DNA of 64,000 nucleotides, taken from positions 832,001 through 896,000 of the forward strand of contig CAVXKA010000002.1 of NCBI GenBank assembly GCA_963762255.1, given 5' to 3'. Both the position numbers and the translations under genes were made by a program. The notes under the pieces are model-generated. The model was not told the DNA's origin. It made no database searches and saw nothing but the letters and a program-made list of their open reading frames with translations. The stretch comes from Candidatus Eiseniibacteriota bacterium. Its GTDB lineage: Bacteria > Eisenbacteria > RBG-16-71-46 > JABDJR01. Of this stretch, positions 2,462 to 45,478 are shown piece by piece. How positions within the stretch are numbered: the stretch's first letter is position 1; each line of letters begins with the position of its first letter.

Positions 2462-3307
2462 ATGGTCACACCCGCCGAGAACTCCGCGAAGCAGGAACGG
2501 CTCCTCTCCATCTCCTCTCCCCTCGAAAGGGTGCTGGCACTGGCTCGCATGCTGCGCCAACCCGACGGCTGTCCCTGGGACCAGGAACAGACGGTCGAGA
2601 CGCTCACTCCGTACCTCCAGGAGGAGACCTTCGAGGTCGTGGAGGCGGTAGCCGGGCGCGATCGGTCGGCGTTCCGAGAGGAACTGGGCGATCTTCTCTT
2701 CCTCGTCCTGTTCCTGGGGGCGGTGGCTGAGGACTCGGGGTGGGGCACCATCGAGGAAGTCGGCGCCGGAGTGGTCGAGAAGCTCATCCGCCGCCATCCG
2801 CACGTGTTCGGGGAAGGGCCCGAGATCGGGAGCGAGGGGGCTCTTCGCCAGTGGGAAGAGATCAAGCGCGACGAGCGGGCCGAGGGCGCTCCCGCTGCGT
2901 CGGTACCTTCGGCGCTGGGAGACCGGCCGAGCGGTCTACCCGCCTTGACCACCGCCTTCCGCATCTCGGAAAAGGCGGGGGCGGTGGGTTTCCAGTGGGC
3001 CGATATCCGCGGCGCTCTCGCCAAGCTGGACGAGGAGGTCGGAGAGTTTCGTGAGGAACTCGACGCCGAGGCCCGGCCTCACGCTCTGGAGAAGGAGATC
3101 GGCGACATCCTGTACTCCGTGGTCAACGTCGCACGGTATCTGCGCATCGATCCCGAACGGGCGTTGCGCGGCACGACGGCCAAGTTCCAGCGCCGATTCC
3201 GGTACATCGAAGGCCGCCTCCACGAGCGCGGATTGAGTCCGGAGCGCGTGTCACTCGACGAGCTGTCCGTGCTCTGGAATGAGGCCAAGGCCAAGGGGAT
3301 CGACTAG
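2462..3307 (+). CDS. mazG: Nucleoside triphosphate pyrophosphohydrolase MazG (two MazG domains)
   Basis: DGCPWDQEQT, EETFEV, EELGDLL, KLIRRHPHVF, EIGDIL, KFQRRF. Start taken at ATG 2462. Confidence 0.95.
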   Translation: MVTPAENSAKQERLLSISSPLERVLALARMLRQPDGCPWDQEQTVETLTPYLQEETFEVVEAVAGRDRSAFREELGDLLFLVLFLGAVAEDSGWGTIEEVGAGVVEKLIRRHPHVFGEGPEIGSEGALRQWEEIKRDERAEGAPAASVPSALGDRPSGLPALTTAFRISEKAGAVGFQWADIRGALAKLDEEVGEFREELDAEARPHALEKEIGDILYSVVNVARYLRIDPERALRGTTAKFQRRFRYIEGRLHERGLSPERVSLDELSVLWNEAKAKGID

Positions 3308-41616: not shown

Positions 41617-43812
41617 TCAGCGAGGAGGGGTGAGCGGATGGCCGAGGGAGAGGGTCCAGAGGTCGCGGTCATGGGAAGCGCGACCGTAGGCAATCTGAAG
41701 CGGGCCGATGGGGAGGTCGAGCCGCATCGCCGCACCGTAGCCACCGCGGAATCCCGAGAGCTTCACGTCGTCCGCGCGCATCCACACCCAGCCGCCGTCG
41801 AGCATGAAGCGCAGGCTCATGACAGACCAGATCGGGATGTCATGGTGGATGCCTCCCGCGGCCACGTTGTTGCCGAGGAGTTCCTCCTCGTGGAAACCGA
41901 TCAGGCTTCCGGGGCCGCCGAGCCTGAACCACCGAGCCGCGGGCACCACGCAGTTGTGGAAGCCGATGCGAGCCCGCGCGCCGACGACCCCCCCCAGCGG
42001 CCCCGCAAGGCATCCGGAGGCGCGCAGGTCGTACCGGCGGAACGCGCGGTCCCCGCCCAGGATCCGCCACGCGGCCTCCACTTCGGCGGAAACGTCCACC
42101 TCTCGCGCTGCGCTCCCGCCCAGCCCCTCGCGCAAATAGACTCCCCGCATCACCAGTGAGGTGTAGTCCTCACGTTCCGCGGCGATGGCCTCTGGGGGAT
42201 AGGAGTCGGTGACCGTCCATTCGCGGCGGGGTGCGATCTCGATCAGCCCGTACCGCCCGAGCACGAAACCGGTCTGGAGGAAATCGATGCTTCCCCGGCG
42301 AAGGTGCACGGATCGTTGGCGGGTCCGGCCTTCGTAGCGGGGCAGGACGTCGTTTCTGTAGGTGGCCCGCGTCCGCTGGAAGAGCCTCACCGGCATGAGA
42401 TAGGGGGTCTCCGCCTGGACGGTGAAGACCTGGGTGTTCTCGTTGCCGAGAACCTCGACCAGCGCCGAACTCCCGGTGCGCCAGATGTTGGTATTGCGAA
42501 CCCGCAGGATCCCGCCCCATCCGCGCTCGGTGTCCACGCGCAATCCGGCCCCCGCCCCCCATGAAGGCCGCTCCGTGACGCTGACCACCAGCTCGACGCG
42601 ATCCACACCCATGGGAAGAATTTCGATACGGACCGCGCGGAAGCGGCCGTTGCTATCGAGATTGGCGAGGCTGCGGATCACGAGGTCCATGTTCCACGCT
42701 TGGCCCTCCTCGACCGCCATCTCCTCTTTGACGACCTTCGCCTCGTAGTTGCGGAGACCCTCGACGCGGATCTTGCCGATGCTCATCCCGTCGAGGGCGC
42801 GTCGGGCGCGTTCGCCGAACGCTCGGCGGGAGATCCCCCGCTCGGCCATGCGTTCGCGGGAAATGCCCGCCGAATCGAGAATGGCGAACACGCGCGGGAC
42901 CGCGGCGAGGCCGGCTCGGTAGCCCGCCGCAACGGCGGAGTCGGCGCGGTCGAAAGCGGTCGGGCTGATCGAACCGAGGTCGGGACAGATGACGAGCTGC
43001 GCGTACTCCATCCCTTGCGTGTTGGAGAACTGATTCATGACCTCGTAGGTGCGGCGGGCCACGGTGAATGGGCCGAGCGGGACGGTGCCCGCCTTGAAGG
43101 GCTTCGCGACATCCACCCCGATCAGCACGCGCGCGCCCTGTTCATGCGCCGTGGTGAGCGGGAAGTTGTCGAGAATCCCTCCATCCACGAGGAAGAGCGA
43201 GTCGACCTGCACGGGCTCGAAGACGAGGGGCACCGCCGTGGTCGCGACCAGGGCGCGTGCAAGGCTGCCGCGGTCGAGAGAAACCAGACGACCGGTGCGC
43301 AGATCGGTGACGACGGCGCGGAAGGGCACACCAAGCGCGCCGAAATCGCCGCCGGCTGCGAACTCCGCGGGCAGCGTCTGGCGCGCGTAGACCTGCTGCG
43401 GTCCGGCGGAGCCGGCGAGCGTCTGATCCAGCTCGAGCCCCCGCTCGCCGGAGAGGTAGAGCGTGAAGAGCCCCGGACGGTGGTCGCGCGCCTCGGTCAC
43501 CTCCCGGTATCGCCCGCTGTGGGCGCCGGAGAGGAGAACGTCCCAGTCGAGACTGCGGGTGAGGGATTCGAGCTCCTTGGGGGAGTATCCCGAGGCGTAG
43601 AGCCCGCCGATGACGGCGCCCATGCTGCAGCCGACGACCAGGTCGGGGGTAATGCCGGCTTCCTCGAAGGCAAGGAGCACACCGAGGTGAGCCAGCCCGC
43701 GGGCACCGCCGCCGCTCAGGACGAGGGCGAAATCGGGGGGCGGGTCCGTGCTTGGCGCGGCCGCGGTGAAGAGAAGAAGGACGATGAGGAGAGAACTGAT
43801 TCGAACCAGCAC
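41617..43812 (-). CDS. Patatin-like phospholipase with POTRA and Omp85/BamA-type barrel (PlpD-like)
   Basis: LSGGGARG, GCSMG, VDGG; POTRA IRVEGL..SLANL..GRF; barrel end LPIGPLQIAYG..LSLG. Confidence 0.87.
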   Translation of the reverse strand: MLVRISSLLIVLLLFTAAAPSTDPPPDFALVLSGGGARGLAHLGVLLAFEEAGITPDLVVGCSMGAVIGGLYASGYSPKELESLTRSLDWDVLLSGAHSGRYREVTEARDHRPGLFTLYLSGERGLELDQTLAGSAGPQQVYARQTLPAEFAAGGDFGALGVPFRAVVTDLRTGRLVSLDRGSLARALVATTAVPLVFEPVQVDSLFLVDGGILDNFPLTTAHEQGARVLIGVDVAKPFKAGTVPLGPFTVARRTYEVMNQFSNTQGMEYAQLVICPDLGSISPTAFDRADSAVAAGYRAGLAAVPRVFAILDSAGISRERMAERGISRRAFGERARRALDGMSIGKIRVEGLRNYEAKVVKEEMAVEEGQAWNMDLVIRSLANLDSNGRFRAVRIEILPMGVDRVELVVSVTERPSWGAGAGLRVDTERGWGGILRVRNTNIWRTGSSALVEVLGNENTQVFTVQAETPYLMPVRLFQRTRATYRNDVLPRYEGRTRQRSVHLRRGSIDFLQTGFVLGRYGLIEIAPRREWTVTDSYPPEAIAAEREDYTSLVMRGVYLREGLGGSAAREVDVSAEVEAAWRILGGDRAFRRYDLRASGCLAGPLGGVVGARARIGFHNCVVPAARWFRLGGPGSLIGFHEEELLGNNVAAGGIHHDIPIWSVMSLRFMLDGGWVWMRADDVKLSGFRGGYGAAMRLDLPIGPLQIAYGRASHDRDLWTLSLGHPLTPPR

Positions 43813-43930
43813 CGCGGGAAGCTTCAGCCCCGGCGGGCGCGGCGTCAACCGGTCAGGACCGGGCGCGCGGCGGGTCAGGCTTGGCGACAGGAGCGTGACG
43901 CCGGCCGACGCACCTGCGCGCGCGCGGCGG

Positions 43931-43969
43931 GAAAGAAAACGGGGCCGGAGGATCGTTCCTCCGGCCCCG
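43931..43969 (-). terminator. Strong intrinsic terminator
   Basis: CGGGGCCGGAGGA-ACGA-TCCTCCGGCCCCG followed by TTTTCTTT. Confidence 0.9.
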
Positions 43970-44275
43970 AAGCTGACCGCAATAGAGTCCCACGACCCTA
44001 TCGCGGGCACCTCGACATGGAACTACTCAACTGGCAGACACCTCCCCCGCCATCTCTAGGCGGCACCCCGTGGAATGCGCTTCTGGCGCGCGATGTCGGG
44101 CCGAGCCCGTCCGCGCGCCGCGCGCGTCCCTTCGACCGGAGTGTTCGGATGCGATCCTCGGCATGGCCGCGGATCCGGGCCTGCCGTCGGGGAGGAGGTT
44201 GGCCGCGAAAGCCCTCCGCTCCTCGGACCCGTTCCCGGGGTCCCTCGGTGGGGCCCACCCCGACGTCGTGGTAGC
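43933..44275 (-). ncRNA. Candidate structured RNA of about 340 nt, family not recognised
   Basis: Bounded by a sigma70-like promoter and a terminator, no credible protein ORF, several nested stems, internal SD plus 10-codon ORF. Confidence 0.55.
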
Positions 44276-44279
44276 CATA

Positions 44280-44308
44280 AGGCTATCACGAGGCGGGGGG
44301 GCAGTGAA
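44280..44308 (-). promoter_or_regulatory. Putative sigma70 promoter for the RNA candidate
   Basis: TTCACT-17 nt-TAGCCT with TG extended -10. Confidence 0.55.
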
Positions 44309-44473
44309 AATCTCATTGTTTGCGCACCGGCTCCACACGGTTTCGAGCCCCCGGACCCGGGATGGGCCCCTCATCGCCCCTCGTGCTAGACTCCGGTGCT
44401 TCGCAGCCGGGCAGAGACTCGTCATCCCGGCCCAAGCAGTTGACGCCGTACCCCCTTGCCATCACAAACCACC

Positions 44474-45478
44474 ATGCACTTTGAAGACCATCGCCGGGGC
44501 GCGCCCGGCACCCGCACACGGCTCTATCGCTATGCCCAGGTCGTCTCCGTGGCGATCGTGGTGCTGCTCCTCGCGGGGGCCATGGTGAAGAGCACGAACA
44601 CCGGCCTTTCGGTGCCCGACTGGCCGCTCTCGTTCGGGAAGGTCATGCCCGCGATGAGCCCGAGCGTCCCCTACTTCTACGAGCACGGGCACCGCATGAT
44701 CGCGACCCTGGTGGGCGCGCTCACCGTCGTTCTCGCCGCGTGGCTCTACGTGCGCGAGCCGAGGGCGTGGATGCGCCGGCTCGGGTGGGTCGCCCTCCTC
44801 ATGGTGATCCTGCAGGGGGTGCTGGGTGGAATGACCGTGCTGCTGAAGCTACCGGTCTGGACATCGGCCGCGCATGCCTGCCTCGCTCAGGGGTTCTTCC
44901 TTGTCGTGATCATGATCGCCCTGGCGCTTTCACCCGGATGGAACACGAAGTCGCGGTCGCCGGAGGCCTTCGACTCGCGCACCCCGGTCCTGGCGACCAT
45001 CGCCACCGCCGCCATCTTCGTGCAGTTGGTCCTCGGCGCGGTATTGCGGCACATGGAAGCCTGGCAGGTGATCCAGGACTGGCCGCTCTCCAACGGTCAC
45101 CTGATTCCTCCGGTCTTCACGCCCGAGATCGCCGTGCACTTCGCGCACCGCACCTGGGCCTATGTGGTCCTGATCGCAGCGATCGCCGCCGGCGTGAGCG
45201 CATTGCGAACCGCCGGCAAACGCTCCGACATCGCGAGCCCTGCCATCCTCATGCTGATCCTGGTCGTGGTTCAGATCATGCTAGGAGCGCTGACGATCTG
45301 GACCCACCGCCAGCCGCACGTGGCCAGCACGCACCTCGTGATCGGGGCGCTTCTTCTTGCGGTGAGCTTCATCCTCACCGCACGATCCTGGCGCTATCTG
45401 CGCACTCCGCGACCCGTGCTGCCGGAGGCGCTGAGGACCCGCGAAGGAGCGGTCGGCTACGGAGAGGGCGGCGCGTGA
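44474..45478 (+). CDS. ctaA: Heme A synthase (COX15/CtaA family)
   Basis: GLSVPDWPL, YEHGHRMIA, LQGVLGG.TV, AHACLAQ, HFAHR, STHLV. Confidence 0.9.
   Translation: MHFEDHRRGAPGTRTRLYRYAQVVSVAIVVLLLAGAMVKSTNTGLSVPDWPLSFGKVMPAMSPSVPYFYEHGHRMIATLVGALTVVLAAWLYVREPRAWMRRLGWVALLMVILQGVLGGMTVLLKLPVWTSAAHACLAQGFFLVVIMIALALSPGWNTKSRSPEAFDSRTPVLATIATAAIFVQLVLGAVLRHMEAWQVIQDWPLSNGHLIPPVFTPEIAVHFAHRTWAYVVLIAAIAAGVSALRTAGKRSDIASPAILMLILVVVQIMLGALTIWTHRQPHVASTHLVIGALLLAVSFILTARSWRYLRTPRPVLPEALRTREGAVGYGEGGA

Follow-up and report, generated by a model that had tools for sequence, protein, structure and literature searches.

Short open reading frames (ORFs) are found in several kinds of regulatory RNA. The dual-function small RNAs SgrS/SgrT, RNAIII/delta-haemolysin, SR1/SR1P and Spot 42/SpfP encode conserved peptides of 15-43 residues. 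Leader peptides are encoded in the classical attenuators trpL and hisL and in rnTrpL/peTrpL of Sinorhizobium, a stand-alone leader-peptide RNA; in the mgtA leader a sensing RNA is joined to a micro-ORF, mgtL, and this leader, like riboswitch-controlled small RNAs, controls a fixed downstream gene. Here we describe a small RNA of about 340 nucleotides (nt) with a micro-ORF near its 3' end, encoded on the minus strand of a 64,000-nt stretch of DNA (hereafter the window; GenBank assembly GCA_963762255.1, contig CAVXKA010000002.1, positions 832,001 to 896,000) from a member of Candidatus Eisenbacteria, a phylum of uncultured soil and sediment bacteria that has no cultured member. The stop codon of the micro-ORF lies in a hairpin; the end of the reading frame of transfer-messenger RNA (tmRNA) also lies in a helix.

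By type, the element belongs with those bacterial small RNAs that contain a short ORF. Its conservation, its covariation, the confinement of RNA-library contigs to its limits and the lack of a match in Rfam together make it an independent, undescribed structured RNA, and the conclusion that it is the first member of an RNA family that is new by sequence is well supported.

Transcription unit, homologues and fold

The RNA lies in a gap of 644 nt between a minus-strand gene for a patatin-POTRA-Omp85 protein and the plus-strand ctaA/COX15 gene, both identified by Pfam (Table 1). A sequence-only reading of the window had proposed at this place a promoter, a set of stems, a Shine-Dalgarno (SD) sequence with a micro-ORF and a terminator; all of these elements were found again on the minus strand.

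Homologues were sought in 206 genomes of the phylum (the window's genome is designated G000 and its relatives, G001 onward, are labelled Candidatus Eisenbacteria metagenome-assembled genomes). BLAST detected the RNA in G001, which belongs to the same genus (81% identity across window positions 44300-43940, very nearly the limits originally drawn), and in all four genomes of a second genus, at 70% identity. An exact-pattern scan of metagenome contigs yielded one extra copy (L039), and the same scan of genome contigs returned solely five genomes already known. G003 and G002, which represent the two remaining genera of the family, were matched weakly (E 0.2-0.4) by a covariance model of the 3' part (R2). 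As in the window, the matched stretches are divergent from ctaA and about 350-380 nt upstream of it, and on sequence reading they show the same core. A model of that core built from nine sequences (R3) matched all eight genomes of the family once per genome, with 57-79 bits, and gave a distant match in a genome of another family, G020 (30.5 bits, E about 0.002), which is probably a distant member from a second family. The search of related metagenome-assembled genomes that had been suggested with the sequence-only reading thus found the RNA in the eight family genomes, besides one metagenome contig. Below, the seven close homologues are G000, G001, G004-G007 and L039, and the ten homologues are these together with G002, G003 and G020.

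Outside this set the RNA appears to be absent from the sequences searched. The order-mates G008 and G009 had no match to R1 (a model of the 5' domain), R2 or R3; R3 added only G020 when run over two samples of 40 genomes each; and no homologue was found in the rest of the 206 genomes by pattern, nor by R2 in 151 genomes under stricter filters. Some further matches were set aside as chance. A 21-mer with up to two mismatches gave three extra matches among the 206 genomes, all in coding sequence (one of them a metK-like ORF as read), and a match of R3 in G029 falls inside a coding sequence read as aspartokinase-like. The 3' module is the most conserved and the universal part of the RNA. The 5' domain is rich in helices and evolves fast, R1 finding no match in G002 or G003 either.

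The promoter had been proposed as TTCACT-17-TAGCCT. Its -10 half stood, as an extended -10 element (TGnTAnnnT) that is present in 10 of the 10 homologues. Its -35 half did not: TTCACT (44308-44303, minus strand) is not conserved among the homologues, and a consensus promoter scan found no promoter-like site at its thresholds, which speaks against TTCACT/TAGCCT as a strong consensus pair. The proposed 13-base-pair (bp) terminator with its U tract was recovered at 43969-43940 by a terminator scan, as one site with a 13-pair stem and T tract against 0.3 +/- 0.7 in shuffled sequences, and a terminator hairpin occurs in all ten homologues, including predicted ones in G003, G002 and G020. The G-U pairs of the stop-codon hairpin and the U tract assign the RNA to the minus strand. 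With its own conserved promoter and terminator, the RNA is an independent minus-strand transcription unit running from about 44273 to 43933.

The 345-nt stretch folds at -192.4 kcal/mol, compared with -166.8 +/- 6.4 for shuffled sequences (z = -4.0; none of 100 shuffles as good), and homologues are likewise more stable than their shuffles (z = -5.1, -5.0 and -3.0). The RNAalifold consensus of the seven close homologues comprises 97 pairs in 14 helices, with standard pairs in 94.6% of its cells; it recovers the stems that had been named from the single sequence, most of them with compensatory changes. Covariation was counted in the same seven sequences, with 500 column shuffles and partners slid by 1-3 columns as controls. 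Changes on both sides affect 23 pairs, against 12.7 +/- 2.3 in the shuffles (none of the 500 reaches 23) and 2-6 in the slid controls, so that covariation, which the sequence-only reading had proposed to look for, is present. The signal is strongest in the stop-codon hairpin (helix 13; 7 of 11 pairs changed on both sides, 96% of cells paired), followed by the hairpin at 44174-44152 (helix 6; 4 of 8 pairs) and by P1, the stem that closes the 5' junction. In helices 1-4, which form this junction, 5 pairs are changed on both sides and 91-100% of cells are paired. Three helices that are invariant in the seven close homologues gain compensatory support, by eye, from the more distant ones: CACUCCG/CGGGGUG is replaced by CGUCUCG/CGGGGCG in G003 (A-U to G-C), the base of the inner helix, GACGCG/CGCGUC, by GAUGCG/CGCAUC in G002 (C-G to U-A), and the CCGCC/GGCGG hairpin contains a U-G pair in G002 and reads CCGGC/GCCGG in G020 (C-G to G-C). 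In a MAFFT alignment of the 3' half of all ten sequences G002 and G020 were misplaced by 3 columns, and no pair counts were therefore taken from that alignment.

The RNA is transcribed and abundant. Part of the 350 nt is contained in 20 runs from 16 studies, seven of which are RNA runs. When three RNA libraries from three studies were mapped on 43500-44800, whole contigs fell inside the RNA and none into the flanks. They measure 325 nt (43957-44260, the rest being adapter), 196 nt (44059-44254) and 150 nt (44103-44252, with no differences), and there are two shorter ones, including one at 44020-44132. The RNA-library contigs give no depth at 43808-43939 or 44292-44599, and the neighbouring genes attract only low-identity pieces of about 35-50 nt, from contigs that continue unlike the window. 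The 5' ends of the contigs, at 44252-44260, are 13-21 nt inside the start predicted from the -10 element (about 44273). DNA carry-over in RNA libraries is possible; run X21, made up of raw reads that may be DNA, is uninformative on the RNA, with no more than 10 partial reads of low identity. The search for a discrete transcript in metatranscriptomes, suggested along with the original proposal, thus returned contigs confined to 43957-44260, which carry no information on strand or ends.

The RNA matches no known family. Searched against Rfam 15, T-box and known riboswitches included, the whole window had no match at the gathering thresholds, and with E up to 10 the region 43700-44500 gave five chance-level matches only, the best of them, asX1, covering the terminator only (26 bits, against a threshold of 70). 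ARAGORN found no gene and no tRNA-like domain in the small RNA. The hallmarks of tmRNA, RNase P RNA and signal recognition particle (SRP) RNA had been reported as absent, and these searches agree; the claim of novelty is kept. The genome encodes its own tmRNA (RF00023; C3:695063-695424, 173 bits), RNase P RNA (RF00010; C3:36244-36629, 307 bits) and SRP RNA (RF00169; on C3), and two matches to 6S RNA (RF00013) above the Rfam threshold are found at C2:243811-243989 (87 bits) and C1:103435-103588 (50 bits), so that the genome may carry two 6S RNAs. Since these four RNAs are encoded elsewhere, the small RNA is not a diverged copy of any of them.

Nor is it a protein gene. None of the three minus-strand ORFs of 86-132 amino acids (aa) has a Pfam match. 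In tblastn searches with three ORFs per strand the matches were solely to the same-genus locus, in four different frames, and nothing below E = 0.002 was found in five loci of other genera although the DNA there is about 70% identical. Indels between genera within the RNA are 1, 2 and 4 nt long. None of these reading frames is therefore conserved across genera, as expected from the original remark that the stretch holds no credible protein ORF.

A role as CsrA sponge, which had also been put forward, does not hold. The CsrA family (PF02599) has no match in G000, a genome that is 93.6% complete, and the control search matched in 3 of 14 reference genomes. The GGA motifs are indeed present and number 12, in line with the approximate count given for them, and their excess is modest (7.2 +/- 2.2 in 1000 mononucleotide shuffles). 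Hfq-binding ARN repeats were rejected as well, the Hfq family having no match in the genome.

The 3' module and its micro-ORF

The elements of the 3' module follow each other in a fixed order: the closing helix, the 5-bp hairpin, the invariant GGGGGAGG, a spacer of 7-10 nt, a start codon, AGU-AGY, a frame with its UAG in a hairpin, and the terminator. The start codon lies 8-11 nt after GGAGG, a spacing within the range that the genome uses, and is UUG in two homologues, AUG in five, GUG in two and AUG again in G020. In nine of the ten homologues it opens an in-frame ORF of 10, 11, 13 or 14 codons that always ends with UAG within the hairpin, the in-frame UAGs of G002 and G003 lying at different distances; the sole indel within the ORF among the close homologues is 3 nt long. 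The corresponding peptides are MSSSMSRCPR (G000), MSSSMSRCSR (G001), MSSSPCGDRPR (G005 and G007), MSSSPCGSRPR (L039), MNSSTCLRRPL (G006), MNSSMCLRSPF (G004), MSSCSNQRGGDTR (G002) and MSSSQMRRTGRSRG (G003). In G020 (L070 1484-1493, G020:C15) the putative micro-ORF contains a run of 10 G; with one G fewer, an 11-codon frame would end at the hairpin UAG, and an assembly error may lie behind the out-of-frame reading. The SD sequence and micro-ORF first noticed in one genome have thus turned out to be a conserved module, and the stop codon does lie, as had been noted, in a 13-bp hairpin with two G-U pairs (44006-43977), now supported by covariation.

Two or three AGU/AGY serine codons stand directly after the start in the five g1/G005-type sequences, in G002 and in G003; in G006 and G004 they follow one Asn codon, and G020 has CGU AGU. 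A short ORF with such a codon run is also a mark of leader-peptide attenuators. In the genome AGU is rare, making up 3.5% of Ser codons, and a crude count puts UAG, a common stop, at about 39%. The genome makes use of SD sequences, as a 5- to 6-fold enrichment of GGAG/GAGG at positions -14 to -9 before first in-frame ATGs indicates. Judged from the sequence, the probability that the micro-ORF is translated is a little over one half.

The reading to which we incline, with confidence only slightly better than even, is that of a stand-alone small RNA, or mini-mRNA, whose micro-ORF is translated for a regulatory purpose. Ribosomes would load at the SD sequence and translate the micro-ORF, and what selection maintains would be translation as such, not the peptide. 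In their passage the ribosomes would open the hairpin around the stop codon and, in the close homologues, also a predicted long-range helix (helix 5) whose 3' strand consists of the 3' end of the SD sequence and the spacer up to the start codon, and which would thus bury the spacer. The RNA might then switch between a closed and an open form, or change in stability. We infer translation of the ORF, remodelling of the RNA by translation and a cellular effect; regulatory translation is favoured over a functional peptide because the peptide is not conserved while the SD sequence, start, first codons and stop-in-hairpin arrangement are kept.

Several observations weigh against this reading, and some of them fit equally a purely non-coding RNA, in which the SD-like GGGGGAGGU, the NUG and the AGUAGU would be structural motifs or binding sites and no peptide would be made. 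Little of the peptide is conserved past M-S/N-S-S, and the codons at its C-terminal end covary as a hairpin stem. AGU-AGY is invariant as nucleotides, for all the rarity of AGU among Ser codons, and so fits an RNA motif as well as codons. The SD sequence and spacer are mostly paired in nine of nine partition-function folds, the probability of the SD sequence being unpaired ranging from 0.07 to 0.54. As assembled, the G020 frame misses its UAG after the run of 10 G. One RNA-library contig (X8, depth about 5) reads UAU for UAG, and the other arm of the hairpin does not compensate. On the same side of the balance, the SD sequence apart, the signal for an ORF comes from few independent lineages and amounts to about three in-frame chances of 1 in 3; helix 5 is invariant in the seven close homologues, so that covariation cannot test it, and is not evident in the folds of G002 or G003, which leaves the switch unproven; and the Logan contigs show neither strand nor RNA ends and come from runs chosen for containing the stretch.

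A non-coding RNA could have a protein as its ligand, or act as a decoy for the 30S subunit or for the 16S ribosomal RNA 3' end, and AGUA could form a loop-E-like motif with the conserved CCGAAC. Against it stand the start position, which is only ever AUG, GUG or UUG in the ten homologues, the in-frame UAG, which closes the frame in nine of them despite the differences in length, and the SD-to-start spacing, which is one the genome uses. Moreover, no partner protein was identified, the genome having no Hfq or CsrA family match. We therefore regard a purely non-coding RNA as rather unlikely, though deserving of real weight.

The same SD, start and frame evidence would also be expected if the RNA were an mRNA whose product is a functional micropeptide (10-14 residues, M-S/N-S-S..., in most cases containing one Cys and several Arg) and whose long structured 5' part is an untranslated region with a regulatory or stabilising role. 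Cys occurs in eight of the nine in-frame peptides, and about half of the substitutions between close pairs are synonymous in a by-eye count on the alignment. However, conservation is limited to the first 3-4 residues, the peptides differ in length (10 to 14), the residues at the C-terminal end are free to change as the hairpin covaries, and G003 lacks the Cys. No neighbouring gene suggests a peptide-modifying or peptide-using system. A functional micropeptide is accordingly an improbable explanation.

Flanking genes and a self-targeting CRISPR spacer

Had the RNA been a cis-acting leader of the patatin-like gene, that is, a leader-peptide attenuator (as the sequence-only reading had suggested among its options) or a riboswitch with a regulated terminator, one would expect it to stay with that gene. 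In six genomes of two genera it does share the strand of the patatin gene, with a distance of about 120 nt from its end to that gene, and in outline a short ORF with a terminator behind it resembles an attenuator. However, patatin is the downstream gene only in six loci (G000, G001, G004-G007); G002 has a CN hydrolase there, G003 an M6 peptidase and L039 a convergent gene, with no constant operon tied to a regulatory amino acid. The promoter TTGACG-17-GAAGCT that had been suspected for the patatin gene is present in the window between the terminator and that gene, outside the RNA, and this promoter-like motif is also conserved in G001, G004, G005 and G007 (the alignment row of G006 ends before it). 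Inspection of the window sequence by eye, in place of a dedicated computation, showed no segment complementary to the 5' arm of the terminator and no antiterminator pairing; about 30 nt separate the stop codon from the terminator stem; and the RNA-library contigs stop at 43957. The change of downstream gene among homologues and the promoter-like motif before patatin mark the RNA as a stand-alone unit and not a dedicated leader, an explanation that is largely refuted and that we consider very unlikely.

The motif on the patatin side ends 7 nt before the probable GTG start of the gene, for which reason the patatin mRNA may be leaderless. The 731-aa product joins a patatin-like phospholipase domain with POTRA and Omp85 domains, an arrangement that suggests an outer-membrane-anchored or exported lipase. 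On the other side, ctaA is the divergent neighbour wherever the contig covers the upstream region (G000, G001, G002, G003, G004, G006 and L039); it was not found in G020 with the query used. Given the lack of a match in G020 and the small size of the family, this linkage may be plain inheritance. When five loci were searched for a shared operator between the RNA promoter and ctaA, only G/C-rich 9-mers came out as common motifs, and no palindrome. In G004 (L036 1960-3150) and L039 (1982-3121) an ORF of about 380-396 aa without a Pfam match is situated between ctaA and the small RNA. In G002 (L042, G002:C631; the genome is 88% complete) the ctaA match at 1152-2105 has one in-frame TAA and the CN-hydrolase ORF at 2668-3249 stops early relative to the domain model; these stops could be assembly errors or pseudogenes.

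Among the 56 CRISPR (clustered regularly interspaced short palindromic repeats) spacers of the genome, only one matches the genome outside the arrays, and its target is the small RNA. The spacer belongs to an array of 46 repeats, where it is the fourth from the end with intact repeats; degenerate repeats are found at the far end. The end with intact repeats adjoins a gene for a reverse transcriptase (RT)-Cas1 fusion (RVT_1 + Cas1, 713 aa), with genes for Cas6 and a CARF protein after it; the opposite side carries a Cas10-like protein that has GGDD, along with several RAMP proteins, some of them fused, which identifies a type III system. Read on the other strand, the repeat ends in a CCCC...GGGG stem followed by ATTGAGAC; this end is common to a second array, and the opposite end differs. 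From the repeat ends, the degenerate repeats and the usual architecture of type III repeats, the CRISPR RNA (crRNA) would be complementary to the small RNA. On reading, the 3' flank of the target does not match the 8-nt tag. A report on such RT-Cas1 systems describes a bias of spacer acquisition towards highly transcribed genes, with a slight preference for crRNAs complementary to transcripts (PMC6821258). Because such systems favour highly transcribed genes, the spacer, identical to the RNA at 36 of 36 positions, is independent, if indirect, support for the abundance of the RNA in the G000 organism.

A perfect match to a spacer in the host's own array might instead indicate that the sequence is foreign, a phage or plasmid remnant targeted by the CRISPR system. 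Yet the RNA occupies the same chromosomal position beside ctaA in four genera and is present as a single copy per genome, and the viral contigs of IMG/VR had no match to the core pattern or to a 24-nt part of the protospacer. We find a foreign origin scarcely credible. Returning to an RNA whose micro-ORF is translated for regulation, a more specific version of it, to which we assign a low probability, is a translation-sensing riboregulator. Ribosomes that start at the invariant SD sequence and then pause at the rare AGU-AGY codons, or terminate at the hairpin UAG, would report the supply of seryl-tRNA or release-factor activity and flip the RNA between two structures that differ in activity, and the RT-Cas1 system would have recorded the RNA, now the target of a type III crRNA. 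If true, this would be an instance in nature of a host regulatory RNA against which a CRISPR system has acquired a spacer that it tolerates or uses.

Table 1. Features of the small-RNA locus and of the CRISPR-Cas locus that holds the matching spacer (window positions unless another contig is given)
Feature	Position	Strand	Basis or remark
ctaA/COX15 gene	start 44456	+	Pfam
Extended -10 element: TG (44288-44287), one base, TAGCCT (44285-44280)	44280..44288	-	sequence reading
Small RNA, about 340 nt	43933..44273	-	5' end inferred from the -10 element, 3' end from the terminator U tract
5' three-way junction, P1 GUCGGGG (44264-44258)/CCCCGAC (44192-44186), three hairpins inside	44186..44264	-	helices 1-4
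Protospacer, 36/36 identical to spacer G000:C1:144888-144923	44170..44205	-	BLAST and array reading
Predicted long-range helix, 5' strand GGCAGGCCC (44185-44177) pairing with GG.GUCUGCC (44042-44033)	44177..44185	-	fold prediction
Helix CACUCCG (44143-44137)/CGGGGUG (44070-44064), closing a long GC-rich hairpin of variable length	44064..44143	-	helices 7-10
5-bp hairpin CCGCC-loop-GGCGG directly 5' of the SD sequence	44047..44063	-	invariant in 8/10 homologues
SD sequence GGGGGAGGU	44040..44048	-	GGGGGAGG identical in 10/10 homologues
Micro-ORF UUG AGU AGU UCC AUG UCG AGG UGC CCG CGA UAG (MSSSMSRCPR + stop)	43998..44030	-	sequence reading
13-bp stop-codon hairpin CCGCGAUAGGGUC/GACUCUAUUGCGG, two G-U pairs	43977..44006	-	helix 13
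Intrinsic terminator, 13-bp stem (43969-43940) followed by UUUUCUUUC	43931..43969	-	terminator scan; helix 14 of the covariation count
Promoter-like TTGACG (43848-43843)...GAAGCT (43825-43820) before the patatin gene	43820..43848	-	sequence reading and alignment
Patatin-POTRA-Omp85 gene, 731 aa	41620-43812, probable GTG start 43812	-	Pfam
Type III CRISPR-Cas locus (loci L010, L040, L041)	G000:C1:141838-145178 and 150995-151917		

Comparison with described systems

A full-text literature search on the phylum name brought up ecological or genomic items, and among the items seen no regulatory RNA was reported for Candidatus Eisenbacteria. The locus provides a clean, expressed and covariation-supported example of an RNA from an uncultured phylum, found in small metatranscriptomes of several habitats, and a test case for the purpose of very short, poorly conserved ORFs in abundant small RNAs. 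The self-spacer bears on whether, in nature, abundant host RNAs are sampled by RT-Cas1 systems, and it prompts the question how a type III crRNA complementary to a cell's own RNA is tolerated.

Like tmRNA, the RNA is abundant, about 350 nt long and furnished with an internal short reading frame; it differs in having no tRNA-like domain and in that its frame has an SD sequence and a start codon. With leaders of the mgtA/mgtL type it shares a tiny ORF that follows a large structured RNA and could set the conformation of that RNA through its state of translation. Here, in contrast, there is no fixed downstream gene, and conservation of the 5' domain does not extend to G002 and G003.

The resemblance to leader-peptide RNAs (rnTrpL/peTrpL, trpL, hisL) extends to a very short ORF with repeated codons, here the rare Ser AGU/AGY, and to hairpins, a terminator and a released small RNA. 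The RNA differs from them in that approximately 215-260 nt of structured RNA (about 175 nt in G020) precede its ORF, and at this locus there is neither a constant downstream operon nor, by eye, an alternative terminator/antiterminator pairing. From the dual-function small RNAs the present one differs in that its frame has 10-14 codons, of which the first 3-4 are conserved, and in having no sequence or Rfam relation to them. It is like them in that a separate promoter and terminator delimit the transcript, its body is structured, and the short ORF inside it has a ribosome-binding site of its own; the conserved promoter, the terminator and the contigs confined to the RNA mark it, as they would any member of that class, as an independent small transcript.

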